From NCBI GenBank assembly GCA_038131935.1, contig JAYPQH010000036.1, positions 1-30,489 on the forward strand: a stretch of 30,489 nt of DNA, in the 5' to 3' direction. The stretch comes from Alphaproteobacteria bacterium (GTDB taxonomy: Bacteria; Pseudomonadota; Alphaproteobacteria; UBA8317). The position numbers and the translations under genes are program-made. The notes below the pieces were generated by a model. That model saw only the letters and a list, made by a program, of their open reading frames with translations, did no database searches and was not told the origin of the DNA. How positions within the stretch are numbered: position 1 is the first letter of the stretch; every line of letters begins with the position of its first letter. Shown piece after piece: positions 4,375-25,839 of the stretch.

Positions 4375-4695
4375 ATGGTCGATCAATTTCAACAGCGTTC
4401 AGCAGCTGCACAAGCCGCAATGTCCAGGCAACAAATACGTGAGTTTCGTATTCAGGTTGCAAGGGTTCGTTCATTTGCACAGTTACTCGATGAGGAAACT
4501 CAGTTGTCCTGCGCTGCCTTCGGGGAAATATGGGCAGATGATGTCATTATGCATGGGCTTCAAGAGGACTTTGTATCAAAAGCTCATCAACTGCTTATGG
4601 AGCATAATGCATTGATATCAGTATCCCGGCTGCATGAATTATGGGGCCAATCCCTGATGATAGCGCGCAATACAGAATTAGGTGAGCCAACGTGA
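4375..4695 (+). CDS. Divergent DUF1476 / ATP synthase zeta-subunit-like protein
   Basis: 106 aa, divergent from purC (the usual DUF1476 position in Alphaproteobacteria). N-terminal F-x2-R...F-x5-R-x-R spacing matches zeta (FDDRE...FKAEARRNR). Confidence 0.55.
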   Translation: MVDQFQQRSAAAQAAMSRQQIREFRIQVARVRSFAQLLDEETQLSCAAFGEIWADDVIMHGLQEDFVSKAHQLLMEHNALISVSRLHELWGQSLMIARNTELGEPT

Positions 4696-6199
4696 ATATT
4701 GTTCAATTGTTGCATAAATCTGCCAGGTCATATCCCGAAAAATGGGCTTTATGTTTGGGGCTGGAAAAATATGCTCGTTATGGCGAATTCGCTGAAAAAG
4801 TCATGTCAATCGGTTTTTATCTAAGAGAAAAAAAGGGGATAAAGGTTGGTGATCGGGTCGCAATGGCACTGCCTAATAGTCCATTTTTTTATGAATTTTT
4901 GTTTGCAGTATGGCATATAGGTGGGGTGATTGTGCCTATGAATGCCAAATTACATCTGCGAGAATGGGATTATATAGCCACCCATAGTGAAGCAAATTAC
5001 CTTCTTCTTAGTGAAGACAATATTGAGCCATTCCAACGTCAACAAACCTCCGCCTGCGTCGTTGAAACGCCATCGATCATCATGGGCAGTGCTCTAGAGA
5101 AGGAACCGTATCCAGCTGCTTTACGTTGTCCAGAAGATCCTGCTTGGATATTTTACACAAGTGGCACAACGGGGAGGCCTAAGGGCGCTGTGTTGACCCA
5201 TCGTAACTTACTGGTCATGACCTTGAGTTATTTTGCAGATATCGACCAGATAAAACCTGAGCAGACGATTATTCATGCCGCGCCTATGTCTCACGGTTCT
5301 GGTTTGTATGGTCTGCCTCACATTGCAAAAGCGGCCATGCATGTCATTCCGCAAAGTGGTGGATTTCAATCAGATGAATTTTTCCAGCTACTGGCAAATT
5401 ATCCTGAAGTTACCATCTTTGCCGCCCCCACCATGGTGGTGCGTATGATGCGCTCAATGAATGATGAGACTGATATCTCAAACTTGCGGCTCATTTGCTA
5501 TGGGGTGGGCCCATGTATGTTGAGGACACCCGTCGGGCTTTGCAAGTTTTTGGTCCAAAACTTGTCCAAATTTACGGTCAAGGGGAAGCGCCCATGACCA
5601 TTGCCGCCCTTCCTCGAGCTGCACATCTCAAACGTGAAGATGATGAGGATTGGCTATCTCGACTGGCATCCGTTGGCGTGGCGAGGACAGATGTTGAAAT
5701 TGGTATTTTTGACCAAAATGGTAAAGAGTTAGGACCGCTATCAATTGGTGAGGTGGCTGTGCGCGGTGACATAGTTATGTCAGGTTATTGGAATGATCCA
5801 GCTGCTACAAATGCTGCAATTCGAAATGGTTGGCTTTTTACCGGTGATATGGGTTTTTTGGATAACAAAGGTTTTTTGTTTCTGAAAGACCGTTCCAAAG
5901 ATTTGATCATAAGTGGCGGAACAAATATTTATCCACGTGAAGTTGAAGAAATCCTACTTCGCCATGAAGCTATATGGGAGGTGGCTGTCATTGGGGAACC
6001 TGATGAGGAGTGGGGCGAAAACGTCGTTGCTTTCTACGCCGTTCGTGATGGCTACCATGTGACTACAGAGGATTTGGATGCACATTGTCTTGGCCAACTT
6101 GCACGTTTTAAAAGGCCAAAAAAATATATTCGCCTAGATGATCTTCCCAAAAATCATTATGGGAAGATCTTGAAACGTTCGTTGCGTGAGCAATTGTGA
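4692..6199 (+). CDS. AMP-binding acyl-CoA synthetase (long-chain fatty acid-CoA ligase family); frameshift near 5503
   Basis: YTSGTTGRPKG, QIYGQGE, TGDMG, DRSKDLIISGGTNIYP and GKILKR motifs. One G added in a G-run restores YGGGPM and joins ORFs 4692-5597 and 5495-6199. Confidence 0.92.
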
Positions 6200-7510: not shown

Positions 7511-7554
7511 GTGCTTCTCCAAGTGTGAATATAATCGTGGTAAAGATATGGCGG

Positions 7555-8424
7555 TTAAGTCGCCATGTTGTAAGGTGGATGGTCCCAACCTTTAAGCGAG
7601 TGGGTGAATATTTCAAAACCATCTGCGGTGACGCCGATAGAATGTTCAAATTGCGCTGATAGCGAGCGATCACGTGTCACAGCTGTCCAGCCATCTGAGA
7701 GAATTTTTACCTCAGGTCGACCAAGATTGATCATGGGTTCAACAGTAAAAAACATACCTTCCATGAGTGTGACGCCTTCCCCAGCTTTCCCAAAATGTAA
7801 AATATTGGGTGCGTCATGGAATATAGTTCCCAGGCCATGTCCGCAAAAATCTCTTACAACGGAACATCTCTCTGCTTCGGCAAATTTTTGAATGGCATAA
7901 CCTATATCGCCTGTCGTTGCGCCTGGTTTGACCGTATTGATGCCCGCCATCATTGCGTCATAGGTAATTTGTATGAGGCGCTTTGCTTTTACGCTCACGT
8001 CGCCCACAAAGAACATCCGGCTGGTATCGCCATGCCAACCATCTCGGATGACGGTTACGTCGATATTTAGAATATCGCCATCTTTCAGAACCTTAGGCCC
8101 TGGGATGCCGTGGCATACAACATGGTTGAGGCTGGTACAGATTGATTTAGGAAAACCTCGGTAATTCAGAGGGGCGGGGATCGCCTTTTGGTCCATGATA
8201 TATTCATGGCAGATTTGATCTAACTTCTCTGTTGTAACACCGGGCACAACGTATGGGGTTATCATATCAAGCGTTTCAGCTGCGAGTTTTCCTGCCTCTC
8301 GCATGGCTGTGAAGGCATCTGCGCCGTGTAACTTGATGGGGCCCATCGCTGTTTGCACAATTTTTACAATTGACTGGTTTGGCATAAAGCTCTCTTCTCC
8401 GTTGTCATTTTTAGGATTGCTCAA
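7555..8424 (-). CDS. map: Methionine aminopeptidase type I
   Basis: CTSLNHVVCHGIP, DVTVIRDGWHGD, GHGLG, TVEPMIN and AQFEHS motifs; start is TTG 8424 or ATG 8385. Confidence 0.97.
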   Translation of the reverse strand: MSNPKNDNGEESFMPNQSIVKIVQTAMGPIKLHGADAFTAMREAGKLAAETLDMITPYVVPGVTTEKLDQICHEYIMDQKAIPAPLNYRGFPKSICTSLNHVVCHGIPGPKVLKDGDILNIDVTVIRDGWHGDTSRMFFVGDVSVKAKRLIQITYDAMMAGINTVKPGATTGDIGYAIQKFAEAERCSVVRDFCGHGLGTIFHDAPNILHFGKAGEGVTLMEGMFFTVEPMINLGRPEVKILSDGWTAVTRDRSLSAQFEHSIGVTADGFEIFTHSLKGWDHPPYNMAT

Positions 8425-9953: not shown

Positions 9954-10721
9954 ATGTACGCAGATCTTAATATAAAAAGTGTTCAAGAAGAAGTAAGCGC
10001 TGAGGAATGGCAATTACGTGTCGAACTCGCCGCTTGCTACCGTTTGGTTGCATTACATGGTTGGGATGATCTGATTTTTACTCATATTTCTGTGCGGGTG
10101 CCGGGGCCAGAGCATCATTTTCTGATCAACCCATATGGAATGCAATTTGAAGAAATTACGGCTTCGAGCCTCGTTAAAATTGATTGTGAAGGCGAGATTG
10201 TTGCTAATGCGGGTCCCTTTTCCTTCAATAAGGCTGGTTTCGTGATCCATTCAGCCATCCATATGGCACGCGATGATGCCCAATGCGTGATTCATTTACA
10301 TACCCCTGATGGCGTTGCCGTCTCGGCACAGAAAGATGGTTTGCTGGGCATTTCTCAACATGCGCTCTTGCTCCAGCCACATATAGCTTATCATCATTAC
10401 GAAGGTGTGGCTTTTGATACAGATGAACGCTCACGTTTGGTGAAAGATCTTGGGGATAAGAGGCTTTTTATGCTTCGAAATCATGGGACATTGGCGGTTG
10501 GTCGCACATGTGCTGAAGCATTCATGGGCATTTTCTTCCTGGAAAAAGCATGTTCTGTTCAAGTTAGAGCGTTGACAGGTGAGATTAATTGGCCTGACGA
10601 AGCTGCAAAAAATACCACTTGGAAACAAGGACAAGATATGTTTGATCGTTCCGTCCCTGACCTTGCTTGGTCGGCGCTTATGCGTAAGCTAGATCGGATA
10701 GATCCAAGTTTTAAACAATAA
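9954..10721 (+). CDS. Class II aldolase/adducin family protein
   Basis: HISVRVPG, FLINPYG, AGFVIHSAIH, HLHT and LRNHG metal-binding motifs. Confidence 0.93.
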   Translation: MYADLNIKSVQEEVSAEEWQLRVELAACYRLVALHGWDDLIFTHISVRVPGPEHHFLINPYGMQFEEITASSLVKIDCEGEIVANAGPFSFNKAGFVIHSAIHMARDDAQCVIHLHTPDGVAVSAQKDGLLGISQHALLLQPHIAYHHYEGVAFDTDERSRLVKDLGDKRLFMLRNHGTLAVGRTCAEAFMGIFFLEKACSVQVRALTGEINWPDEAAKNTTWKQGQDMFDRSVPDLAWSALMRKLDRIDPSFKQ

Positions 10722-10745
10722 AATTTGAAGTGGTTGAAAAATAAA

Positions 10746-11861
10746 ATGAAGCCACTTGCTTATGGCTGTCACGAAGAAGGTATTCGATCCAGATTCGTAC
10801 CCAACAACAATGGATTGCTTGTTCATGTCCTGGAGGCTGGGCCAGGATGTGACAAAGCACCCGTTGTGCTACTTTTACATGGCTTCCCTGAGCTTGCTTA
10901 TAGTTGGCGTCATATCATGAGAACTTTGGCACAACAGGGGTTTCATGTGCTGGCTCCAGATCAACGTGGGTATGGACGTACAGAAGGATGGGATCCAAGA
11001 TTTGAAGCTGACTTATCTCAATACTCAGCTTTAAACCTAGTTCATGACATTTTAGGAATGTTGGACCATTTGAATATTTCCCATTTGCGGGCGGTTATAG
11101 GCCATGATTTTGGTGCAATGGTAGCAGGTTGGTTTGCGCTTCTGCGACCAGATATGTGTGACGCGGCAATGGTTCTGAGTGCGCCATTCACTGGGGCGCC
11201 GCGGCGTCCATCAGCAGATCTTGATCAGGCTTTAGAGGATTTGGCCAATCTCGAACGTCCGCGTAAGCACTATCAATGGTATTATGCCACGGCTCGTGCC
11301 AACCGTGATATGTCATCTCCTCCCCAGGGTTTAGGCGCGTTTTTGAGAGCGTATTACCACCATAAAAGCGCTGATTGGGTTCAGAATAAGCCTCATCCTC
11401 TAAGATCTTGGTCTGCCCAAGAACTTGAAAAATTACCCACCTACTATGTGATGGATCTCCATGAAACCATGCCGGAAACTGTGGCGTGGGAGATGCCAAA
11501 TGAAGATGAAATTAAGAAACAAGCTTGGTTTGATGAAACTGTTCTTCAGGTATATGTTGGGGAATACCGACGGAATGGTTTCCAAGGTGGTTTGCATTGG
11601 TATGGCGCAAGGATTCATGGTTCTGCACGTAAAGATTTGCAAGTTTTTTATGGACATAAAATTACCATACCTTTCACATTTCTGGCAGGGGCATCCGATT
11701 GGGGATATCAGCAAATTCCAGGTGGCTTAGAAGCAATGCAGTCGTTATGCACAAAGTTTCGTGGCATAAAGTTAATTGAAGGAGCTGGTCATTGGGTACA
11801 ACAAGAAAAGCCAAATGAGGTTGGGCAACATATTCTTGAAATGCTTGCCGAATGTACCTAA
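10746..11861 (+). CDS. Alpha/beta hydrolase, soluble epoxide hydrolase family
   Basis: HGFPELAYSWRH, PDQRGYG, GHDFG (Asp nucleophile) and GAGHWVQQE motifs; alternative TTG start at 10725. Confidence 0.9.
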   Translation: MKPLAYGCHEEGIRSRFVPNNNGLLVHVLEAGPGCDKAPVVLLLHGFPELAYSWRHIMRTLAQQGFHVLAPDQRGYGRTEGWDPRFEADLSQYSALNLVHDILGMLDHLNISHLRAVIGHDFGAMVAGWFALLRPDMCDAAMVLSAPFTGAPRRPSADLDQALEDLANLERPRKHYQWYYATARANRDMSSPPQGLGAFLRAYYHHKSADWVQNKPHPLRSWSAQELEKLPTYYVMDLHETMPETVAWEMPNEDEIKKQAWFDETVLQVYVGEYRRNGFQGGLHWYGARIHGSARKDLQVFYGHKITIPFTFLAGASDWGYQQIPGGLEAMQSLCTKFRGIKLIEGAGHWVQQEKPNEVGQHILEMLAECT

Positions 11862-11920
11862 GACATGACAAGTTTTGTTTCGCAAACTTTTAATTTTTGG
11901 CTTCAGGAGGCTGATAAGTA

Positions 11921-12448
11921 ATGAATGTGCAGAAAACCGTCGATGAAAAACGCATGCCTTACCAGTTACCGTTTCCTCCAGATGCATTACCAGAAATCAT
12001 AGTAAATGATGCTATTCCTGAAGACGAGCGTATTTGGGTGCCACAGGCAGAAAATGTTTCTTTTCGTCCTTTATGTCTGAACCGCTCCCAAGGATATTGG
12101 ATGAATCTTCTGCGGGTGAGAAAGTCAGGTGTGCTCTCTAGGCACCGACATCCACAGGCAGTACATGGATTTGTGTTAAAGGGTCGTTGGCATTACTTGG
12201 AGCATGATTGGGAGGCAAAGCCAGGTGGCTATGTCTACGAATCTCCCGGTGAAACCCATACGCTTGTTGTTCCGGAAGATGTTGAGGAAATGATCACATT
12301 TTTCCAAGTAAATGGCGTTATGATTTATGTCGACCCTTACGGCAATGTCACCGGTTATGAGGACGTTTTCAGCAAAATTGACATGTGCCGTGCACATTAC
12401 GAGCAGGTTGGATTGGGTGCTGATTACGTAGATCAATTCATTCGTTGA
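11921..12448 (+). CDS. 2,4'-dihydroxyacetophenone dioxygenase (DAD) family cupin
   Basis: HRHPQAVHGFVLKGRWHYLEHDW...YVYESPGETHTL cupin motif; AGGAGG SD upstream. Confidence 0.85.
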   Translation: MNVQKTVDEKRMPYQLPFPPDALPEIIVNDAIPEDERIWVPQAENVSFRPLCLNRSQGYWMNLLRVRKSGVLSRHRHPQAVHGFVLKGRWHYLEHDWEAKPGGYVYESPGETHTLVVPEDVEEMITFFQVNGVMIYVDPYGNVTGYEDVFSKIDMCRAHYEQVGLGADYVDQFIR

Positions 12449-14266: not shown

Positions 14267-14364
14267 AGAACGTCTCCAAAATGAGTTGATGAAGAAAAAA
14301 AGGCTTGCAGAGTGTGAGTTTGGCGTTAATTACTTCAGCTGTCTATGCAAATGAGGGGAATACC

Positions 14365-16692
14365 ATGAATATCCAAATATCACAGCGGAATAGTTCGGAA
14401 ATTCGTAAAGAGGATGACCGATTGCTCCGTGGGGTAGGTAAGTTTTCAGGTGATTATCAATATGAAGGTCAGCTTTATGCAGTGGTCATACGCTCAACCG
14501 TGGCGCATGCGCGTATTGTGCATATGGACCTTGACGCTGTGCGTGATGCACAGGGCGTGCAGATTGTATGGACCCATGAGGACATTACCGCACGTGGGGC
14601 GGGAGATATGCCCAATATCGTAAGCTTTAAGGATGTGAATGGTGAAGAGCAGCGTGTGAATGAACAGCCTGTTCTCGCGCGGGATAAAGTTTTTTACGTA
14701 GGTCAGCCTGTTGCCGTGGTCATTGCATCAACAAGGCAGCAAGCGTCAGATGCGGCGGAGCTAGCTTTCATTGAATATGAAGAATTTGATGCTGTGGTCG
14801 ATGTTTTAAAAGCGGGGGATGCCTTATCTGTTCAGTTGCATGACAATGCCCCAAATAATCTTTCATTACATTTTAGTTCCGGTGATGAGCAAAAAGTGTC
14901 TGAAGCATTTGACCAGGCACGTTATGTAAGCAAATTGGTCGTAAATTCTCAACGTTTGATGGGTGTGCCAATGGAGCCCCGGACAGTGGTTGCCCGACAT
15001 GATTTAGAAACAGGGATATCCACATTGCATGCCCCGAATCAAGGATTGCAGGCATCCAAAGCCAATTTGGCGAAGATTTCGGGTGTTCCTATCGAACAAT
15101 TGCATGTTGAATGTAACGATGTAGGTGGTTCTTTTGGGATCCGCAGCTCTTTGTATCCAGAGCATATCATATGCCTTCTTGCTGCTAGGGAGTTAAATTT
15201 GCCTGTCCGTTGGGTAGGGTCCCGGTCAGAAAGTTTTATGAGCGATGTACATGGGCGTGGCATTGTTCTTGAGGGGAATGTGGCCATTGATGAAAACGGA
15301 AAAATTCTTGCGATACGCTTTTCTAACACAGTAGATATCGGTGCATTCAACTATGCCATGAGCACACATATCGGTGCACGGAATTTGTCTTTAACCTTTG
15401 GGGGGGTTTATCAAGTTCCGCATCTTTTTATGGAGTCGCGCCTTTATTACACAAATATGACGCCGATGTCTCCTTATAGAGGTGCTGGGCGTCCAGATAT
15501 TGCTTATGCCATCGAGCGGTTGATAGACCATACCTGTCGTGAACATGGGTTTGATCCAGTAGCGTTCCGAAGAAACAATTTTATCCCAACAGATGCATTT
15601 CCCTATACCACGGCAAATGGAACAATTTACGACTTATGCCGTAGTGAAGAGTTGATGAACAGAGCCCTGGAACTTGGACAGTGGGAAGGGTTTGAAACCC
15701 GGAGAGCCGAAGCGCGTAGGCGTGGTAAATTACGAGGACTTGGATTTTCGACTTTTCTGGAGGCGTCAGGACCCGGTGGGGCACCTTGTGATCAAGTTTT
15801 GGGATATTTTTCACATGGTCGTCTGCAATTGCGTGGTGTTACAGGACCATCTGGTCAGGGACACGAAACAACATATGCGTTGGTTGTTGAGCAAGAATTA
15901 GGCATACCGGCATCGATTGTTGACTATCAGCCAGGTAACCCACCTGTTGCATTGACTGGGAATGCTACGGGTGGATCACGGTCTGCATATGGTCTTGGTA
16001 GTGCCATTAAAGATCTCGCGCAGCGTATGATGGATGATGCATGCCCTTTTGCAGCCGACCTTCTTGGCGTGTCTGTTCAAGATGTGCGCGCAGAGGGCGG
16101 TGTCTTTTTTGATATGTCCGGAGACGGTACAAGTCGGGTAACCTTGCATGATATCGTTGAACGATTTGGACGCGATCAAGAAGACTTTCTGAAACAGGTT
16201 GGGGAAGCATCGTCCTTTGCAACCTTTCCGAATGGATGCCATATTGCTGAGCTTGAGATTGATCCAGAAACAGGCATCACAGAGGTGATTGCTTACCATG
16301 CTGTTGACGACATAGGTCGGGTCATTTCTCCAGTTATGGTTCGTGGTCAGGTTCATGGAGGCGTTCTTCAAGGGTGGGGGCAAGCTTTCTGCGAACAAGT
16401 GGTTTATGATGATCATGGCCAGCTGTTGACAGGTTCATTTATGGATTATGCCATGCCAAGAGCGGATGCCATGGTCGAGCCTCTAAATGTAACTGTAGAA
16501 GTGGTAACCGAGCTTAATAAACTTGGCTCAAAAGGAATTGGGGAATCTGGTTGTACGGGGTCCCTTCCGGCATTTGCCAATGCAATGATTGATGCCCTTA
16601 GCCCCTTTGGTGTGCGGGCCCTGGATATGCCCTTTACCCCTCAAAAGGTTTGGCAAACTATCCAGGACCATGCTGGTAACAATGCTAACTAA
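14365..16692 (+). CDS. Xanthine dehydrogenase family molybdopterin-binding subunit (CoxL form II-like)
   Basis: RKEDDRLLRG, MEPR, VGGSFG, PYRGAGRP, GQGHET, GQVHGG, SFMDYAMPRA and KGIGESG motifs. Confidence 0.92.
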   Translation: MNIQISQRNSSEIRKEDDRLLRGVGKFSGDYQYEGQLYAVVIRSTVAHARIVHMDLDAVRDAQGVQIVWTHEDITARGAGDMPNIVSFKDVNGEEQRVNEQPVLARDKVFYVGQPVAVVIASTRQQASDAAELAFIEYEEFDAVVDVLKAGDALSVQLHDNAPNNLSLHFSSGDEQKVSEAFDQARYVSKLVVNSQRLMGVPMEPRTVVARHDLETGISTLHAPNQGLQASKANLAKISGVPIEQLHVECNDVGGSFGIRSSLYPEHIICLLAARELNLPVRWVGSRSESFMSDVHGRGIVLEGNVAIDENGKILAIRFSNTVDIGAFNYAMSTHIGARNLSLTFGGVYQVPHLFMESRLYYTNMTPMSPYRGAGRPDIAYAIERLIDHTCREHGFDPVAFRRNNFIPTDAFPYTTANGTIYDLCRSEELMNRALELGQWEGFETRRAEARRRGKLRGLGFSTFLEASGPGGAPCDQVLGYFSHGRLQLRGVTGPSGQGHETTYALVVEQELGIPASIVDYQPGNPPVALTGNATGGSRSAYGLGSAIKDLAQRMMDDACPFAADLLGVSVQDVRAEGGVFFDMSGDGTSRVTLHDIVERFGRDQEDFLKQVGEASSFATFPNGCHIAELEIDPETGITEVIAYHAVDDIGRVISPVMVRGQVHGGVLQGWGQAFCEQVVYDDHGQLLTGSFMDYAMPRADAMVEPLNVTVEVVTELNKLGSKGIGESGCTGSLPAFANAMIDALSPFGVRALDMPFTPQKVWQTIQDHAGNNAN

Positions 16693-16704
16693 ACCAGCGC
16701 GGGC

Positions 16705-17626
16705 TTAAAATTGTGCTTCCCGCGCCCTAACAACTGCGCATAACGCGTCGCTGTAGGGTGTGGGTATGCCATGCTGGCGTCCTAGGTAAGGTATCATGCC
16801 GTTAATGGCATCAATTTCTGAGGGGCGTCTGGCCAAATGGTCAAGTCTCATGCTTGGATTTGCGTTGGGCATTGTTTCAGCGAAAGCTGTTACGTAGGCA
16901 ACAGCATCATCAAAGGAAAAATTAACACCCAATTTTTTACCTATAGCAAAGCCTTCCAGCATACCTCCAACAGCAACATTCCAGCGTTCTTCATTATTTC
17001 TAAGCTCCCCCTGTGTTGCATTCAAAGACGGTACAAGGCGCACTTAATGTGCAATTGCAAAGGAATTTTTCCCAAATTAATTGTTCGATGTCATCAAATG
17101 CTTTGGCTTTGAAACCCGCTGATGCCCAAGCTTTTTCAAGTGCTTGCAGACGTGGTGTCATCCCACTGGTGATCTCGCCAATACGAATTTGTCTCATGGC
17201 ATTATGATGTGCATGACCTGGTCCTTTCAAAGAAGCACCAAATCCCTCAGCTACACCGAGAAGAACATTGCTGGTATCCATATGCTGAGCAATGCGGTCA
17301 GCAGCGCCCAGCCCGTTTTGAATGGTGAGCACCAAACCTTCACTCCCCATGACTTCTGAGATGTTTTTGGCTGCAGGGCCAACACCAGATGCTTTGGTTG
17401 CCAAAACATAGAGGTCACATTGTCCTACATCTGCAATATCTGTTGTCGCACGGATGCCTGAGACAACACGATCACCGCTGGCCCCTTCCAACGTAAGCCC
17501 TTTTTGGTTGATTGCATCGACATGGTCTTTCCAAATGTCAACAGCCCACACCTCGTGACCTGCTTCAGCAAAAAGTGCTGCATAGACACATCCCATAGCC
17601 CCCGTTCCCACAATAGCGATTTTCAT
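16705..17626 (-). CDS. Ketopantoate reductase (PanE/ApbA) family protein; frameshift near 17008
   Basis: GTGAMG, IQNGLG, IWEKF, SMRLD and SEIDAING motifs. Removing one G from GGGGG joins ORFs 17000-17626 and 16705-17043. Confidence 0.88.
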
Positions 17627-17764
17627 GGATATTCCCCTCTGACAAAATAGTGATGAAGCATGGAAGGCAAAAATACCCAGCTTGTCAAATAAGTATCTTC
17701 ACAGCAGGCGGATAATGGTAAAATATAAAACGAACAGCAATTCACCTTGTTATTGGGTTACGGC

Positions 17765-20170
17765 ATGAGAAAAACAATAGAACAATCAGAATATTTAAAG
17801 GATGTGGAGCAGCGGCTTTTGTGGTTGTCACACTGGATGATACATCATGCCAATCACATTCGGCCCAAGAAAGATGATATTAAGGTAGGAGGGCATCAAG
17901 CCTCCTCTGCATCCATGGTCTCCATTATGACAGCGCTTTATTTCTCGGTGCTACGGCCTGAAGATCGTGTGGCTGTTAAGCCGCATGCCTCACCTATTTT
18001 CCATGCTATGCAATATCTTATGGGCCGAATTAATGTCGAAAAATTATTGAATTTTCGCGGATATGGCGGTGTGCAATCTTACCCATCTCGGACCAAAGAT
18101 GTCGATGATGTGGATTTTTCAACAGGTTCTGTAGGCCTTGGTGTCGCTGTGACCTGCTTTGCGTCTATCATGCAAGATTATATTCATGCCCGAGCAGGAA
18201 AAAATGGCTGGTCAGACGATATGAAAATTGGTCGGATGATAGCATTGATGGGAGATGCGGAGCTTGACGAAGGAAATGTCTACGAAGCGCTTCAAGAGGG
18301 TTGGAAACACAATTTACGTAACTGTTGGTGGGTTATTGATTACAATCGGCAATCCTTAGATGGAATTGTACATGAGGGGTTATGGGAGCGAGCAGAGGGT
18401 GTTTTTGAAGCATTTGGTTGGCGTGTCGTCCGCATAAAATATGGGGTGCTGCAACAAGCTGCATTTTTGGAACCTGGTGGTGATAAATTACGTCAGTGGA
18501 TCGATAATTGTCCTAATGAGGATTACTCGGCTCTTACCTTCATGGGAGGAGCTGTATGGCGCGAGCGGCTTTTAGATGACTTAGGGGATCAATCAGATTA
18601 TTCAGCTTTGTTGGCGCGCCGAAGTGATCAAGAACTTGCCAATTTGATGGAAAATCTTGGTGGCAATTGTGTTGCAACTCTGGCAGAACAATTTGCTCAA
18701 ATTGAAGGTGAACAGCCTGTATGTTTTCTTGCTTATACTGTTAAGGGATGGGGAACGCCTATCGCTGGACATAAAGATAACCATGGCGGCCTCATGACAA
18801 CCCAACAGATGCAGTCATGGCAGAAACATATGAATGTTCCTAGCGGACAGGAATGGGATCGGTTCGCAACAATAAAAGACGTACCATCATTTGCATCCTA
18901 TCTAGAAAATATTCCTTTTTTTCAGGATAAAGAGCGAAGACGCCAGGATGCAATTATCCCCGTGCCAGATATCAAGGCGCCAACAGATAGTGAAATATCT
19001 ACACAAATAGCCTTTGGAAAAATCCTCGATCAACTCGCTCGAGATGGAACGTCCATTGCTGAGCGTATTATGACGACATCACCAGATGTAACAGGCACAA
19101 CGTCATTGGGGCCGTTTGTAAACAGGCGTAGGCTTTTTGCGCGAAAGCCCAAAAAAGATTTGTTCAAGGCTCGGAATATCCCTTCAACGGCAAAGTGGGA
19201 ATTCGCACCGGAAGGGCAGCATATTGAATTAGGTATTGCTGAGATGAATTTGTTTTTGCTTTTGGCTGCTGCAGGTCTTTCTCATCAATTATTCGGTCAA
19301 CGCGTGCTGCCTATTGGTACCGTCTATGATCCATTCGTGCTAAGGGGGTTAGACGCTCTAAACTATGCTTGTTATCAAGACGCACGGTTTTTGCTCGTAG
19401 GTACACCATCGGGTGTCACTCTAGCTCCCGAAGGCGGCGCCCATCAATCTATCGCCACACCTTTGGTGGGAATAAGTCAGGATGGCCTTGCAGCTTTTGA
19501 GCCGGCATTTTCTGATGAGCTAGCGATCATCATGCAATGGTCATTTGATTATATGCAACGAGATGGAGATGACGCCCTAGATCCTCGAACCTGGTTGAGG
19601 GACAAGACGGGTGGATCCGTATACCTCAGGTTGACCACAGCTCCGCTCGAACAACCTAAGAGAGAATCTGGCGCACTTTTTGCTCAAGATGTCATTGATG
19701 GTGGGTATTGGTTGCGTAAACCTGGGCCCAATTGTCCGCTGGTCATTGTTTATCAAGGCTGTATTGCTCAAGAAGCTATTGCCGCAGCTGGGCTTGCGGG
19801 TGAGTATTTCCGAGATGTTGGGGTGCTTGCGGTGACGTCAGCGGATAGATTGAATGCGGGATGGTCAGCCGCTCAAAAGGCTCGCGCGAATGGGGTGGAA
19901 CAAGTATCCTGCCATGTGGAAACTTTACTCCAAGATGTTCCCCAGCATGCAACACTCATCACAGTGATCGATGGTCATCCAGCAACGTTGGCTTGGATAG
20001 GCGGAGTGTTCGGTCATAGGGTGTTGGCACATGGGGTAGAACATTTTGGGCAGACGGGAAGTATTCAAGATCTTTACAAACATTTTGGGATAGATCGCTA
20101 CAGCTTACTTCAGTCAGCACGGGCTAGTATGCGACCACGTTCTCAAAATGTAATGTTACACTCAGCTTAA
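17765..20170 (+). CDS. AceE-like ThDP-dependent 2-oxoacid dehydrogenase E1 / transketolase-like protein
   Basis: KVGGHQASSAS, QSYPSR, FSTGSVGLG, GDAELDEG...DYNRQSLD, ELGIAEMN and EGGAHQS motifs. Confidence 0.9.
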   Translation: MRKTIEQSEYLKDVEQRLLWLSHWMIHHANHIRPKKDDIKVGGHQASSASMVSIMTALYFSVLRPEDRVAVKPHASPIFHAMQYLMGRINVEKLLNFRGYGGVQSYPSRTKDVDDVDFSTGSVGLGVAVTCFASIMQDYIHARAGKNGWSDDMKIGRMIALMGDAELDEGNVYEALQEGWKHNLRNCWWVIDYNRQSLDGIVHEGLWERAEGVFEAFGWRVVRIKYGVLQQAAFLEPGGDKLRQWIDNCPNEDYSALTFMGGAVWRERLLDDLGDQSDYSALLARRSDQELANLMENLGGNCVATLAEQFAQIEGEQPVCFLAYTVKGWGTPIAGHKDNHGGLMTTQQMQSWQKHMNVPSGQEWDRFATIKDVPSFASYLENIPFFQDKERRRQDAIIPVPDIKAPTDSEISTQIAFGKILDQLARDGTSIAERIMTTSPDVTGTTSLGPFVNRRRLFARKPKKDLFKARNIPSTAKWEFAPEGQHIELGIAEMNLFLLLAAAGLSHQLFGQRVLPIGTVYDPFVLRGLDALNYACYQDARFLLVGTPSGVTLAPEGGAHQSIATPLVGISQDGLAAFEPAFSDELAIIMQWSFDYMQRDGDDALDPRTWLRDKTGGSVYLRLTTAPLEQPKRESGALFAQDVIDGGYWLRKPGPNCPLVIVYQGCIAQEAIAAAGLAGEYFRDVGVLAVTSADRLNAGWSAAQKARANGVEQVSCHVETLLQDVPQHATLITVIDGHPATLAWIGGVFGHRVLAHGVEHFGQTGSIQDLYKHFGIDRYSLLQSARASMRPRSQNVMLHSA

Positions 20171-20256
20171 GTTGATCATTGAACGTAAAAATAACTTATA
20201 GAACCGCACAACAAGCTCCTGATTTTTAGGCGGTGCTGTTTTGTTGGTAGATACAT

Positions 20257-20357
20257 AAGGTTAATAAAGTTTATGGCTTGATGTTGGGGAGACAAATCAC
20301 TGGCATCTATGTGAGAAAGTCTCCTCGATATCCAAGCACAAGGAAAGATTGCACCTT
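20257..20357 (+). ncRNA. Candidate structured RNA: long rod-like hairpin in convergent intergenic region
   Basis: 18-bp stem 20276-20293/20319-20337, inner TCAC/GTGA stem, and outer 9-bp stem 20257-20265/20348-20357. All four non-Watson-Crick pairs are G-U on the + strand. Confidence 0.4.
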
Positions 20358-20444
20358 TAACAACCATTCCTTCAATCGCTGTAATGGTAGCGCTCAATGA
20401 TATCCCTTTAGCACATCTAGCCTTTGTTTGCTCTACCAGACTTG

Positions 20445-21256
20445 TTACTGAAACAAGGACGGGTTTTTAGACATGGCTTGCTCATACAACGCTTGAAAAT
20501 GAAGCCATCCAATATATTCTGAGCCAACATGTTCTCGACTATAACGGGCACTTTCTTCATCGACCAATTTAGGCTCTATCCCTGTTGCGTCTATCATCAA
20601 TTGTTGCTGACAGCAGCGCTCTAGAGCAATGAACCAAAAAGCCGCTGAATCGATGGAATGCCGACTTGCCGTCAACAGACCATGATTTTGGTGAATGGCT
20701 GCCTTCACACCTGTAAAGGCTTTGGCGACACGTGTTCCCGCATCTTCTTCTACGGCCACATGTCCAGCATCATCTTTGATCACAGTGTGGTCTTCGAAAA
20801 AAGCACATGCATCTTGGCTGATCGGAGGTAATGATCGTCCCAATGACGCATAGGCGCCACCATAAATTGTATGGGCGTGACACATCGCCAATATATCTGG
20901 ATGGGCTTCATGTACAGCTGCGTAGGACAAAAACCAGCACGGTTAACGGCATAATCGCCTTCCACGACTTTGCCATCATGGTTTACCAATATAAGATTTC
21001 GGAGACTTACCTGTTCAAAATGAATGGCCATGGGATTGGTCCAGTATAACTCTGGATGCTCTGGATCTCTGATCGTAAGATGACCTGCAAAGCCATAATC
21101 AAATCCATGGGTTGCAAAAGCATGGCAAGCTGCAACCAAACGACGTTTGCGATCTTCACGGGTTGCCTTTACATCATTAAATTCTGGCTCCGATGGGAAC
21201 TGAAGATTTGGCTGCTCTGGCTGATAAATAGAGGTGCGATTACCTAGGTCAATCAT
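20445..21256 (-). CDS. Class II aldolase/adducin family protein (NovR/CloR-like branch); frameshift near 20927
   Basis: AGHLTIRDP, WTNP, VNRAGF, HAHT and QNHGLLT motifs; joins ORFs 20780-21256 and 20445-20930. Confidence 0.88.
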
Positions 21257-22582
21257 GAGGATAATCCTTCATTTGATTCATGCTGGAAATGTTGTTCCAT
21301 ACGTTTTCTTGTAGATATAGCGATATTGGTAGATCCATATCTACGTCATGCCAACATATGGGCTTTCCCGCACTAATATTTGATTTTAATGTTACATGAT
21401 GCGCAAGGCCTGGGTAGGCCTCCCATCTGTAAGGATGTTTTTGCAGGATAAAGCTTCCCCCAAACGCAATGTCCTCCTTCGCCATCTAGGACATCACCTG
21501 CGGACAAGTTACGTTTCGCTGTGGCAACAACATCAGCCTGGAAATTTTTGGTTTGGCCTGTTGCACGCCCTAATAAGCCAGCAGCCAGTATGGAGATATT
21601 TAACTCAAGACCAATCAAATGAAATGGTTTGTACATAGCCGAGAAACGTCCCGTTATGTCTGTGTTCATGCCATACTGCTGGAAACAGCCAGCGGCATAA
21701 TCATTGGGCGCTTCAACAACGACATAGACTCCCCAGCGCAGATCTTTGTGAACAGCTCTACCGTCGCGTTCTAAAGAAGAAACAACCTCGACTTGCCCGG
21801 AGGTCGTCAGGCAACCACCCTTATCTTTAGGGCGAAGGATATGAGCCAAGTCATCCATTCCCGCAGCAGGAAACAAAAGTCCGTCTTCAGGAGCTCGTAA
21901 GCCTGTTGCATTGGCTATGGCCGCCATTTCGAGTGCAGATTTGGTACCATCGAGAAAACTATTGAACATTTGAGAATTCATACCCGCATTATGGGCTTGT
22001 TCAGCTGTTAGGCCATAATGTTGCCACACCGTGTCAGGTGTTGAATGATGATATTCAGGTAAATATTTTGTGCCTTTGCCAGCTGCAACCACATGAAAAC
22101 CACAACTGCGCGCCCACTCTACCAACTCAACGGTAGGGTGCAGGTTGATCACCGTAGGCCATGCTGTAGACAACCCCAGCTGACCTGGCTTCTTGTGCCA
22201 GCAACGGCCCTGCAAGAACATCTGCTTCAACATTCCCCATAACAATATGTTTGCCATATTTGATGGCCAATAAGGCATGGGTAATGCCCGCCAATGGATG
22301 CCCCGTAGCTTCAACAACAACATCAACTTCATCAGAGCGGATGAGATCTTCTGCATTGTCGGTAAATTCTGTCGCTGCGATAAGGCTTTCATCCCAACCA
22401 ACATGACCACAGGCGGTCTTGGCACGGTCTGGGTTCAGGTCAGCAATCGTCGTCACTTTAAGTGCTGGGGTTGTGGGGACCTGAGACAGGAACATGGAGC
22501 CAAATTTTCCAGCTCCAATGAGACCGACACGGACAGGTTTTTTATCCACAGCGCGCTTGAGGAGATCTCCATACAAAAACAT
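21253..22582 (-). CDS. NAD(P)-dependent oxidoreductase with C-terminal SAF domain (COG4091, homoserine dehydrogenase-like); three frameshifts
   Basis: GAGKFG, EATG, NVEAD, GDQPA, DGTKSALEM, KPFHLIGLE and LDGEGG motifs. Shifts near 22136, 21411 and 21331; the corrected stop forms an ATGA overlap with the next gene. Confidence 0.87.
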
Positions 22583-22587
22583 GTTGT

Positions 22588-23383
22588 TTACTCAGCCACA
22601 ATCTGTTGGGTGATAAGCTCTTCAAGGCAATTATCATTCAATGCCGTGATAGGTGTAAAATCACGATGGGCAATCCAGTCCGCACGGGTAAATTTGCGAA
22701 TGTGATTATCCACATGACATAAGGACAAATACACAATGGTTCGATCGAATGGTGATATGTTAGGTGGGCTTGCATGGACAAGGAGTGATGAGAACAATAA
22801 AACTGAACCTGCCGCACCAATGGGAGCCACGCATCCTCCTTGCTTTGCCAATTCAGTTACTTTGTCTCGGTCAAGTGTCCATAGTGGATAAGATGTTGTT
22901 TCAAGGTCATGACCCGCTTCTACCACACCCAATTTATGGCTTCCCGGTATGAAAAGTAGAGGCCCATTTGCTTGGGTAACATCATCTAAAAATACAGCAA
23001 TATTCATCGCTCTTGGTTCAGGCATTCCATCATCACGAAGCCATGTGCCGTAGTCTTGATGCCATTGCCATACATCACCATCAAAGGCTGCTTTGGCATT
23101 TACCTTGAATTGATGCGTAGACTTGTCCATCAAGTATCTGTGAGACAGGTTCCACCAATCTTGGATGTGAGCCCAGACGACGAAATGCTTCGTTGAAGGT
23201 ATGTGCAGCAAATGCTGTTCGTGCCACTCCAGAGCTTTCCCGCCACACTTCCTGGCGATCCATGGCGTACACGTTTGCAGCTTCCTCGCGCAGGAGTTTA
23301 GCCTCTTCAGGAGAAAACATATTCTCAAAGAAAAGGTATCCCTCTTTATCAAATTGTTCCATTTGTTGTTGACTTAACTTCAT
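22588..23383 (-). CDS. Fe(II)/2-oxoglutarate dioxygenase, PhyH family (EctD/proline hydroxylase-like); frameshift near 23117
   Basis: HQFKVNAK, WQWHQDYGTW (HxD), NGPLLFIPGSHK, LVHAS (distal His) and the 2OG-binding Arg in DRTIVY; GGAGG SD before ATG 23383. Confidence 0.9.
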
Positions 23384-23544
23384 TGATACCTCCGCTCGAC
23401 TTTGTCCAAGTCTTTTCAACGCGATTTCTGTCATAATAGCGACGTTTCACTATTTTTCATGAGACGGCTATTTAGGTCAATCACTTGTCATGCATGTATG
23501 GTTTGCGTTTTTATGAAGTCGCTATTTTTTATTGGGGATTTAAC

Positions 23545-24644
23545 ATGAGAACATATGATGTGGCAGTCTTAGCTGGAGACGGCATTGGGGTAGATGTTAC
23601 AGATGCAGCCTTTGCCATAATAGATGCGGTCACTGCGCATATAGGTGGAATATCGGTGAAACGTTGTGACATTCATGCTGGGGCAGGTTTTTACAGCCAA
23701 GAAGGTTTTGATATCGAAGATGGTGGCGAAGAACGATCAGGTCAGGCTGATGCAATTTTTGTAGGCGCCATTGGACTGCCCAGCATTCGTTGGCCTGATG
23801 GTACTGAGATCGCACCACATTTGCGGCTTCGAGAGCGTTTTCAGCTTTATGCCGGGGTGCGGCCCGTCAAGGCTTACTCAGGCACACCAGCGCGGTTATC
23901 CGATGCGCGGGCAAGTCTTATCGATTTGGTCATATTAAGGGAGTCAACGGAGGGGCTGTTTTATTCAGCGGCTGTTCACAGCAGAACCCATCTGCAATCA
24001 GATGAAGAGGTTCAAGAAATATTAAGAATAACGCGATCTACAACGGAAAAACTTCATGATTTTGCGTTTAAGTTGGCAAGAAAAAGGGCAAGGCGTGGTG
24101 GGAAAAATTTGGTAACTTGTGTGGATAAGGCCAATGTTTTTCGTTCTATGGCATTTTTAGAAATATTTTTGATGAAGTCTCAACAGGTCATCAAGATGTA
24201 AGAAAGGGTTACAATTACGTAGATGCTCAGGCGCTAGATTTGATACGACAGCCTTGGGAATTTGATGTTTTGGTTATGGAAAATATGTTCGGAGACATTC
24301 TATCTGATCTGGCGGGTGGTCTGGTAGGGGGAATGGGCATGGCTGCTTGCGCGGAAATAGGGGATAACCATGGCTTGTTCCAGCCAGCCCATGGGTCTGC
24401 ACCAGACATTATGGGTCAAGACCGTGCAAATCCATTGGCAAGCATTCTAAGTGCCGCGCTCATGCTTGATTATTTGGCCGATCGTGCGGATTGTGAAAAG
24501 ACGCGTGAGGCAGCAGAAATGATTGAAGATTTGATTGAAAAAGCATTTGATAATCGGGCCTTAAGACCTATGGAGTTTGGCGGTGATATGGGCACCAAAG
24601 CCATCACAAACACGTTGCTTGATTATGTTAAACAGGGAGGATGA
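23545..24644 (+). CDS. Isocitrate/isopropylmalate (beta-decarboxylating) dehydrogenase family protein; frameshift near 24155
   Basis: GDGIG, YAGVRP, RESTEG, VDKANV, ENMFGDILSDL and HGSAPDI motifs. One T added restores MAFFRNIFD...YVDAQALDLIRQP. Confidence 0.92.
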
Positions 24645-25012
24645 GGTTCGTGGACAATTTTTTTAATATTGACAACATGCAGCAGGGATTGACGCGCACT
24701 CTAACCGAGGGGGTCACAACAAGAATATTTCCTGGCGACCAAGCCATGATTTCAGTTGTGCGTATTGAACCTCATGCGAGAGGGCGATTGCATGCTCACC
24801 CAGAGGAGCAGTGGGGACTTATGCTGGAGGGATCTGCAGTACGCATCCAAGATGGCGTGGAGGTGCCGGTAAAAAAAGGTGATTTTTGGAGAACGCCTGG
24901 TCATATGGAACACGGTATTGTTGCGGGCCCGGAAGGTGCCGTCATTTTGGATATTTTTGCGCCCCCAAGAGAGGCTTATAAAAAGGCTGGCTCAGGTTTT
25001 GGGGACGAGTGA
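24641..25012 (+). CDS. Cupin domain protein
   Basis: HAHPEEQ...EHG...DIFAPPREAY cupin_2 motifs; ATGA overlap with the upstream gene. Confidence 0.9.
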   Translation: MRFVDNFFNIDNMQQGLTRTLTEGVTTRIFPGDQAMISVVRIEPHARGRLHAHPEEQWGLMLEGSAVRIQDGVEVPVKKGDFWRTPGHMEHGIVAGPEGAVILDIFAPPREAYKKAGSGFGDE

Positions 25013-25041
25013 TAGGGTTATAAATCTCTGTAAAACGGCTC

Positions 25042-25839
25042 TCAGGTTTTTTTCCTCATCACAACAATATCCTTATGAGGTGGCGGTGGTATGGTTATAT
25101 CAACGAAACCATGCCTTAGCAGGCGTTCACGGCATGGTATAATTGTATTCTCGCCCTGACGTTCTGCACCGGCGTCAATCCCAATTGTATTTATACGGGC
25201 GAGGGTGTTAGAGGCGCCGTCAAGAACCTCTGGTTCAGCACCTTCTGCATCCATTTTTAAATAAGCGATATCCTGGATATAAGGATGGGTAGAGATGATA
25301 TCGTCAAGTGTTGTGGCCTGTAGGGTCAACAGATGTGATGGATGTTTTGTTGATTGAAATATAGACCCATCAGCATTTTGTGCGCTGGAATAGAAAGATA
25401 CTTCTTTATTCGTATCCAGGGCGACCCTCTGTTCTAAAATCCACTTTCGTGGTCCATGATAATGTTGAGAGATATTCTTTCGTGCGCATACCGCGGCAGC
25501 TGGGTCAGGTTCTATGGATAAAACATTATATCCCTTGCGCAACATGTGTAATGCCCATTCCCCCATAAAGGCACCAACATCTATCGCCCAACTATCCTCA
25601 TGACCTTGTGGGATATCTACCAAGCCATAACGGTTGGATACATCCTGCAATCGATGGTTTAACCCTTTTCTATACATCCGCCATCGACGTGGCCCCGGTG
25701 CCCATATGATATCACTGCCAACTGTGATCTTGTAACCATCGCTGGATTGTTTTTGGGAGATTGCCTCGCTTTTACCGTTGAGCAATCTCTTCAGGTTATG
25801 GAGGGTAATCTGGAATGTTTCGGTTATATTCGTTTTCAT
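25042..25839 (-). CDS. FkbM family SAM-dependent methyltransferase
   Basis: IDVGAFMG, IEPDP, TTLDD and LKMDAEGAEPEVLDG motifs. Confidence 0.88.
   Translation of the reverse strand: MKTNITETFQITLHNLKRLLNGKSEAISQKQSSDGYKITVGSDIIWAPGPRRWRMYRKGLNHRLQDVSNRYGLVDIPQGHEDSWAIDVGAFMGEWALHMLRKGYNVLSIEPDPAAAVCARKNISQHYHGPRKWILEQRVALDTNKEVSFYSSAQNADGSIFQSTKHPSHLLTLQATTLDDIISTHPYIQDIAYLKMDAEGAEPEVLDGASNTLARINTIGIDAGAERQGENTIIPCRERLLRHGFVDITIPPPPHKDIVVMRKKT

Follow-up and report, generated by a model that had tools for sequence, protein, structure and literature searches.

Two described systems frame the locus considered here. In 4-methylproline formation, the hydroxylase GriE binds its substrate through a salt bridge between Arg242 and the substrate carboxylate, and its product is then oxidized with NAD+ by GriF, as set out in the relevant part of the published account (PMC5676206). 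The second system is DXR-II (DRL) of Brucella, a member of the COG4091/DRL family. The pertinent sections of its description (PMC3847144) report that Thr229 is absolutely conserved in DXR-II and anchors fosmidomycin and that His250 is conserved in nearly all DXR-II enzymes; those sections give no function to the sister groups of DXR-II-like oxidoreductases (DLOs), DLO1 and DLO2. A gene for a PhyH-family Fe(II)/2-oxoglutarate hydroxylase and one for a DRL/COG4091-type oxidoreductase stand side by side in the stretch of DNA analyzed here. This stretch, hereafter the window, is a complete contig (C36) of 30,489 bases from the draft genome of an alphaproteobacterium (2.48 Mb in 67 contigs, with a completeness estimated at 89.9%).

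Both genes belong to a run of seven enzyme genes at window positions 16705-25012, which the first-pass annotation had joined into one catabolic pathway. The explanation that best fits the evidence as a whole, and that we consider probable, is that of a patchwork. Seven genuine enzyme genes are arranged in four local transcription units (PanE-like alone; AceE-like alone; PhyH-like, DRL-like and aldolase; LeuB-like and cupin), their frames are interrupted by insertions and deletions (indels) introduced in assembly, and the sole unit recurring across genomes is a two-gene PhyH-like/DRL-like cassette that has spread horizontally among phyla. The minus-strand operon starts with the PhyH-like gene (22588-23383, Pfam PhyH), continues with the DRL-like gene (21253-22582, Pfam DRL_cat (PF21135) at 5e-54 and NAD_binding_3), an oxidoreductase of the DXR-II-like 'DLO' kind, and ends with a class II aldolase/adducin-family gene of the PRK06208 subfamily (20445-21256, Pfam Aldolase_II on both of its pieces). 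In the raw sequence, 5 nt separate the PhyH stop from the DRL-like start, and the DRL-like stop overlaps the aldolase start in an ATGA.

Evidence for the cassette comes from gene neighborhoods in other genomes. Species-representative genomes were scanned with the intact DRL-like ortholog of genome G002, and the best 80 of 592 confirmed stretches (60-100% identity, with flanks of up to 10 kb) were examined. Co-occurrence was counted by tblastn, not from clusters of open reading frames (ORFs), because ORF calling in high-GC loci was noisy: an overlap filter discarded 17 DRL-like genes and 23 PhyH genes, clustering without any filter merged antisense ORFs, and a filter on G+C at third codon positions lost some genes. 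Searched with the window pieces, 55 of the 80 DRL-anchored loci contained PhyH. Among the 79 with enough upstream sequence, 44 have the PhyH gene immediately upstream in the same orientation and 11 have it elsewhere within 10 kb, and it is absent from 24. The linkage is also seen from the other side. PhyH orthologs were matched in 79 of 401 genomes of the class, an evenly drawn sample whose tally includes one unpublished genome (G239), and a DRL-like gene lies within the 1.5-kb flanks of 16 of the 30 best PhyH-anchored loci. The aldolase, LeuB-like and cupin genes occur in none of these 30 loci within the same flanks.

The loci in which PhyH is linked come from Alpha- and Gammaproteobacteria, Acidobacteriota and Actinomycetota, with identities of 60-89%. 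A quick maximum-likelihood tree of the DRL-like proteins was built from 79 rows, namely 77 loci (three with ORFs shorter than 400 aa being left out), the window read-through protein and a paralog as outgroup. The same four groups are mixed in this tree, and the window protein falls in a clade of 30 rows (29 loci and the window) with a support of 97% in the Shimodaira-Hasegawa-like approximate likelihood ratio test, in which 25 of the 30 rows have PhyH nearby. Such a pattern is consistent with a cassette that spread horizontally and whose linkage was repeatedly lost. In at least 10 of the 44 adjacent loci, the pair has a GntR/FCD regulator ahead of it, and enoyl-CoA hydratase occurs in 8, every other neighbor type being found in 5 or fewer; no third gene is consistently present with the pair in these 44 loci. 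Likewise, no common neighbor pattern was seen around 13 PhyH orthologs that have no DRL-like gene. Companions are specific to the host: a Zn-dependent alcohol dehydrogenase in G002, AtuA/DUF4387 in Litoricola-type loci and enzymes linked to coenzyme A (CoA) in some other loci.

Two SAR116-type loci (L026 and L029) show an extended arrangement, in which a LysE exporter gene is followed by GntR/FCD, PhyH, DRL-like and a second PhyH paralog of 292 aa. Here the cassette adjoins polyamine genes, including those for arginine decarboxylase, a saccharopine-dehydrogenase-like protein, a second pyridoxal phosphate (PLP)-dependent decarboxylase of the ornithine/diaminopimelate/arginine type and an arginase-family (agmatinase-like) protein.

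The hydroxylase is related to enzymes that act on free amino acids. In sequence searches its closest solved relatives are the free-proline hydroxylase H11 (E 4e-62), GriE (1e-51) and EctD (1e-35). An alignment of 30 PhyH orthologs, out of 43 that were eligible, served to build an AlphaFold model (mean predicted local distance difference test score 79, predicted template modeling score 0.83). Searched against known structures, the model matched GriE with a Z-score of 31.9, a root-mean-square deviation of 2.2 over 251 residues and 34-36% identity. Entries of H11 followed at Z of about 31 (31.0) over about 247 residues and 42-44% identity, then EctD at 26-29 (28.6) and 29-35% identity, and human PhyH at 23.2 and 17% identity. 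The iron-binding triad H109, D111 and H204, which aligns with GriE His110, Asp112 and His210, is invariant in all 30 orthologs, and the window translation carries the corresponding motifs WHQD and LVHAS. R234, the counterpart of GriE Arg242, is likewise invariant in the 30 orthologs and present in the window translation. An intact ortholog (L084) scores 153.1 bits with the EctD equivalog TIGR02408, below its cut-off of 336.5; Pfam scans of the window ORFs found no Ect-specific family, and ectABC were looked for in the window only. Judged from alignment and model, the hydroxylase is a member of the EctD/free-amino-acid hydroxylase branch. Since it is of this kind, an amino-acid-like or osmolyte-like substrate, as the first-pass annotation had proposed, is a reasonable expectation.

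By analogy with these relatives, the hydroxylase would introduce a hydroxyl group at an unactivated carbon, its substrate being a small amino-acid-like molecule that bears a carboxylate. Its partner, an oxidoreductase resembling homoserine dehydrogenase, would then oxidize the new alcohol to an aldehyde or ketone with NAD(P)+. This hydroxylate-then-oxidize logic is borrowed from GriE and GriF. The class II aldolase-family protein probably acts as a lyase or decarboxylase that takes the oxo product further, both here and in the few Paracoccaceae that have it; elsewhere, other enzymes would act after the pair. More specifically, and only tentatively, the cassette may be a horizontally mobile two-enzyme unit whose substrate, hydroxylated first and then oxidized, is a free compound of amino-acid-like or osmolyte-like type that is common in marine and soil habitats.

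Whether the pair degrades or builds such a compound can be weighed from its surroundings. The presence of a GntR/FCD regulator ahead of so many of the adjacent pairs favors a catabolic over a biosynthetic role. On the opposite reading, the pair would make an amino acid in hydroxylated, oxo or cyclized form, such as a compatible solute or, as in the GriE/GriF system, an imino acid. Its closest characterized relatives, EctD, GriE and the proline hydroxylases, are indeed biosynthetic, a LysE-type exporter adjoins the cassette in the SAR116-type loci, and the PhyH gene often stands alone. However, GntR/FCD regulators, uptake transporters and neighbors of catabolic type (enoyl-CoA hydratase, CoA transferases, aldehyde dehydrogenase) are common around the pair, and the window showed no gene for a nonribosomal peptide synthetase (NRPS) and none of ectABC. 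A biosynthetic role is rather unlikely.

The condition of the genes requires separate consideration. The first-pass annotation named seven enzyme families, all of which are confirmed by Pfam, and a 5-bp gap and two ATGA overlaps, which are visible in the raw sequence. It made no mention of interrupted frames. ORF listing and tblastn with intact orthologs showed that five of the seven are not open frames, with seven breaks in total, and that only the AceE-like and cupin genes are whole. The PanE-like gene is split into two frames near 17007, the aldolase gene near 20923-20929, the DRL-like gene at three places (near 21334, 21410 and 22136), the PhyH-like gene at 23116 and the LeuB-like gene near 24153.

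At first sight, such damage suggests a decaying island, in which the frameshifts are genuine and the five genes are pseudogenes of this strain. The seven breaks fall within about 5 kb of coding sequence and are denser than in the rest of the window; the other strains, known from metagenomes, differ from the window by about 1%; and the region was not found in the sole genome of the same genus, which is itself 84% complete. Yet the fragments carry no in-frame stops and show no other internal decay, and intact orthologs in a distant high-GC genome still match them at 65-87% identity; the C-terminal part of PhyH is 87% identical to the G002 ortholog and the DRL-like pieces are 68-72% identical to theirs.

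Essential housekeeping genes of the same assembly are also broken. The purL gene lies in three overlapping ORF pieces (window 459-2597, minus strand), and the canonical dxr gene breaks into two frames close to its 3' end (contig C2, 18268-19408; loci L165 and L166); rpoB, on contig C17, is unbroken. A gene for an AMP-binding ligase, in two ORF pieces (window 4692-6199, plus strand), shows the same type of break as the genes under study. As a rough proxy, this genome has, per 100 ORFs, 13.5 overlaps of 30 nt or more between ORFs of the same strand, versus 6.1 in 16 comparator loci of similar G+C.

Metagenomes allow the breaks to be compared with natural populations. The region 16700-25100 was present, at 0.69-0.78 of sampled words, in 17 metagenome runs from marine, lagoon, estuary and salt-lake sites, and was found in whole or in part in 20 runs from 11 studies. 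Contigs from four of these runs (X1, X3, X6 and X10), belonging to four studies, were aligned to the window, to which they are 95-99% alike. In all four, indels relative to the window occur at every break site: one base less at 17007, two more at 20923 and one less at 20929, a C more at 21334, TA more at 21410, one base less at 22136 or 22137, AT more at 23116 and a T more at 24153. At the aldolase break, the only difference of X6 among those listed is the one-base omission at 20929. When the eight differences of X1 are applied to the window copy, single ORFs of 306 (PanE-like), 270 (aldolase), 443 (DRL-like), 282 (PhyH-like) and 386 aa (LeuB-like) result, with the gap and the overlaps unchanged. 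Restoration of the aldolase frame was demonstrated with X1, and X3 and X10 are consistent with it. Because dxr and purL are split as well and the X1 differences yield single ORFs of normal length, the seven breaks are very probably indel errors of the assembly and not signs of gene decay. Genuine pseudogenization is very unlikely, as the indels recur at each break site in four independent populations, one of which restores every frame.

The five other genes do not share the conservation of the pair. In the first-pass annotation, all seven genes, lying in two divergent gene pairs or operons, served one route that would hydroxylate, oxidize and decarboxylate a small metabolite. In favor of this view, the chemistry of the enzyme types fits together, the genes within the two operons are closely spaced, and other metagenomes show the region uninterrupted in this species, a 70.7-kb contig of X1 spanning 16700-23083 and a contig of X10 spanning 20442-25100. 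What counts against such a route is the distribution of the genes elsewhere.

Of these five genes, the aldolase gene alone was found with the pair. It occurs in 3 of the 80 DRL-anchored loci (L018, L023 and L046), all from metagenome-assembled genomes (MAGs) of Paracoccaceae, where an aldolase of about 70% identity directly follows PhyH and the DRL-like gene is divergent. Two of these loci, L023 and L046, are contigs of one Paracoccaceae MAG, so the three genes recur, rearranged, in two further organisms. From the aldolase side, 15 of the 401 genomes gave a match, and neither PhyH nor DRL-like genes occur in any of the 14 loci examined with 1.5-kb flanks; around 8 close aldolase orthologs, no shared neighbors were seen. 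The L018 ortholog (7525-8334) scores 379.9 bits against a cut-off of 255 with the PRK06208 model NF004855. The OtnC and FucA equivalogs were tried as names for the aldolase and rejected, an ortholog reaching 30 bits against the OtnC cut-off of 250.

On the plus strand, the 'LeuB-like' gene (23545-24644, Pfam Iso_dh on both pieces) encodes a protein of the isocitrate/isopropylmalate-dehydrogenase family of beta-decarboxylating 2-hydroxyacid dehydrogenases. It overlaps, again in an ATGA, the intact gene for a small Cupin_2 protein of 123 aa (24641-25012; Pfam Cupin_2, 2e-12), for which NCBIfam holds no matching model. The divergent intergenic region between the PhyH-like and LeuB-like starts measures 161 nt by the ORF translations (23384-23544) and contains no regulator gene. 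An intact LeuB-like ortholog (L120), 66% identical to the N-terminal and 72% to the C-terminal part of the window protein, falls below every NCBIfam equivalog cut-off, among them leuB TIGR00169 (228.9 versus 353.2) and tartrate dehydrogenase TIGR02089 (233.2 versus 470.4). LeuB-like matches of about 30-44% identity turned up in 4 of the 80 DRL-anchored loci; these weak matches belong to other subfamilies, and the two that were checked pass the tartrate dehydrogenase model.

LeuB-like genes were matched in 30 of the 401 genomes, four of them at 60-66% identity, and in the 29 loci examined with 1.5-kb flanks no cupin, PhyH or DRL-like gene was present. The closest orthologs instead have as neighbors a GntR/FCD regulator, a DUF1537-type kinase, a GFO/IDH/MocA oxidoreductase or a tripartite ATP-independent periplasmic (TRAP) binding protein; the SBD_N/NBD_C (DUF1537-type) kinase follows the LeuB-like gene in L120 and L123, and the GntR/FCD regulator precedes it in L120 and L121. 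Acid-sugar routes use DUF1537 kinases and OtnC-type class II aldolases. These neighbors hint that the LeuB-like protein may serve a route for acid sugars or hydroxy acids that has nothing to do with the PhyH cassette.

At lower window coordinates lie two divergently transcribed genes. The PanE/ApbA-like gene, for a 2-hydroxyacid/2-oxoacid reductase (16705-17626, minus strand), carries Pfam ApbA and ApbA_C, one on each piece. Its N-terminal piece alone scores 153.4 bits against the subfamily cut-off of 141.35 of TIGR00745, and ketopantoate reductase activity is not implied, because no equivalog-level model was passed. The 'AceE-like' gene (17747-20170, plus strand) is intact and encodes an 807-aa protein resembling thiamine diphosphate-dependent E1 enzymes and transketolases (Pfam Transketolase_N and PDH_E1_M), which scores 176.4 bits with TIGR00759, the model of homodimeric pyruvate dehydrogenase (PDH) E1, below its cut-off of 859.9. 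It belongs to a well-conserved family of proteins of about 800 aa (loci L090-L118), with orthologs at 49-71% identity in 131 of the 401 sampled genomes, in a tally that again includes G239. A Lrp/AsnC regulator adjoins the AceE-like ortholog in 10 of 29 loci; the PanE-like gene lies within 1.5 kb of none of the 29 from other genomes. The 'AceE' matches in 5 of the 80 DRL-anchored loci, at about 24% identity, are ordinary PDH E1 genes, and cupin and PanE-like orthologs are missing from all 80.

With no LeuB-like, cupin, PanE-like or AceE-like ortholog in any of the 80 DRL-anchored loci, the co-clustering suggested at first pass stands for PhyH and COG4091 and falls for these four genes. The multi-gene route fails on the very grounds that its proposers had named as fatal, namely that its genes do not cluster together in other genomes, and the supposed tie to the PanE-like/AceE-like pair is lost with it. 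What survives of that proposal, besides the cassette, is the view that the genes are not housekeeping copies, none of them reaching a housekeeping equivalog by NCBIfam cut-offs. A single seven-gene route is therefore highly improbable, and the LeuB-like/cupin and PanE-like/AceE-like pairs most likely have separate functions and happen to be near.

The identity of the oxidoreductase remains to be placed within its family. In an intact ortholog, a SAF domain (PF08666, 9e-7) completes the Rossmann, DRL catalytic and SAF domain set of DRL, and the best solved match is Brucella DRL (PDB 3UPL/3UPY; 3UPL at E 8e-60 over residues 3-410). The first-pass remark that COG4091 has no assigned substrate was incomplete, since the family includes Brucella DXR-II (PMC3847144, in the part relevant here); for the branch found in the window, which is still uncharacterized, it holds. 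In the alignment to 3UPL, position 229 is Ser, and position 250 is Leu in the window protein and Glu in the G002 ortholog. Elsewhere in the genome, the canonical dxr gene (DXR-I) scores above its family cut-off. Because the signature residues Thr229 and His250 are replaced and the genome keeps a canonical dxr, the protein belongs with the uncharacterized DLOs and not with DXR-II. That it is a DXR-II making methylerythritol phosphate (MEP) for isoprenoid synthesis, unrelated to its neighbors, is scarcely credible: the shared domain set and the strong match to 3UPL/3UPY speak for it, and the two replacements, the canonical dxr and the persistent linkage to a hydroxylase gene speak against it.

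The family is large and poorly named. All 8000 scored candidates match the DRL-like protein at E <= 1e-50, NCBIfam holds no model that matches the ortholog, and the 120 relatives listed carry generic database names such as 'NAD(P)H-dependent oxidoreductase', 'Gfo/Idh/MocA family', 'predicted homoserine dehydrogenase-like' or a mistaken 'FlgA'. The genome itself has an intact DRL-like paralog, 50% identical (contig C33, 58992-60326; locus L168, 7867-9333). Upstream of it lie genes for a class II aldolase, a FAA hydrolase and an aldehyde dehydrogenase, and downstream those for a Cys/Met-metabolism PLP enzyme and then a frame-broken 3-hydroxyisobutyrate-dehydrogenase-like protein. In four loci (L015, L053, L056 and L057), DRL-like genes that have no PhyH neighbor adjoin Iso_dh-family genes, a second partner with which the DRL-like family recurs. 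In L015 and L056, the Iso_dh-family gene exceeds the 470-bit cut-off of tartrate dehydrogenase TIGR02089, scoring 561 and 601 bits.

Several observations weigh against the reading preferred here, that of an assembly-damaged patchwork with one conserved hydroxylase-oxidoreductase cassette. The 14 of 30 PhyH orthologs and 24 of 79 DRL-like orthologs that have no partner nearby show that the two enzymes can work apart. The 1.5-kb flanks used for the PhyH-, AceE-, LeuB- and aldolase-anchored loci would miss more distant linkage. Within this organism, the 5-nt gap and the ATGA overlaps suggest that aldolase and cupin are co-expressed with their neighbors, and non-conservation elsewhere does not disprove a local pathway. 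As to the substrate, the genes around the pair are of many kinds (enoyl-CoA hydratase, CoA transferases, AtuA/DUF4387, Zn-dependent alcohol dehydrogenase, polyamine genes) and, because CoA-linked enzymes are among them, leave room for CoA-linked substrates. A phosphorylated substrate of the oxidoreductase is also conceivable from the region that anchors fosmidomycin or phosphonate in DXR-II, which reads GKGTK here and GKGK in DRL; Lys191 is kept, and Lys193 is replaced by Thr or shifted by one residue, depending on how the gap is placed. Finally, the metagenome contigs are 95-99% alike and not identical to the window, which leaves a small margin for true frameshifts in this one strain.

Outside the studied region, two further features of the window may be recorded. 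At 9954-12448 on the plus strand, a second, intact class II aldolase gene (PRK07044 subfamily) is followed after a 3-nt gap by genes for an alpha/beta hydrolase and then a ChrR-type cupin, in what looks like another small operon. At 14305-16692, also on the plus strand, lies a gene for a molybdopterin-binding large subunit of the CoxL/xanthine dehydrogenase family (795 aa), whose best NCBIfam models all score below cut-off and which has no adjacent small or medium subunit gene within the window.

These results bear on how the locus should be used. The seven genes should no longer be treated as one pathway, as only the hydroxylase-oxidoreductase pair passes the neighborhood test. This pair, strongly conserved across phyla (60-89% identity), offers a testable entry point into the uncharacterized DLO branch of the DRL/COG4091 family. 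Its occurrence in at least one named culture-collection strain, Thalassobaculum litoreum DSM 18839 (locus L084), makes expression, assay and knockout work feasible. In the literature covered, which extended to sources other than subscription journals, no function was found assigned to the cassette or to the DLO groups. If the proposed role of the cassette is right, it would provide the first biochemical function for DXR-II-like oxidoreductases (DLO, COG4091), which have thousands of members and only generic names. The broken frames carry a caution of their own: automated annotation of this draft would call five of the genes, together with dxr and purL, pseudogenes or split genes, though natural populations carry them intact.

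Set beside known systems, the locus shows partial likenesses. The LeuB-like gene shares the Iso_dh fold with LeuB and the tartrate dehydrogenase TtuC; it differs from them in that its ortholog lies below the named equivalog cut-offs, and from acid-sugar routes in that the window has no DUF1537-type kinase. In the oxidoreductase, Ser at position 229 is among the residues listed for DLO2 in the relevant part of PMC3847144. The hydroxylase falls in the same PhyH-family branch as EctD (PDB 4Q5O, 3EMR; TIGR02408), but the ortholog of the window protein is below the TIGR02408 cut-off and the window is without ectABC. Its closest solved relative is the trans-3/4-proline hydroxylase H11 (PDB 7DZZ, 7E00-7E09, 8H7T and others), the activity of which is given here as in the PDB titles; 42-44% identity is insufficient to fix the substrate. 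A further comparison is with GriE and GriF of griselimycin 4-methylproline (PDB 5NCH/5NCI/5NCJ; PMC5676206, in its pertinent sections). There too, a free-amino-acid hydroxylase of the PhyH fold, dependent on iron and 2-oxoglutarate, is followed by an NAD+-dependent dehydrogenase acting on the new alcohol, and both the iron triad and the carboxylate-binding Arg of GriE are kept in the window protein. The partners differ, a GriF-type enzyme being a Zn-dependent alcohol dehydrogenase whereas the enzyme here is of the DRL/COG4091 type with a SAF domain. The setting differs as well: the cassette described here stands without an NRPS context, is widespread in marine and soil bacteria and often lies under a GntR/FCD regulator.

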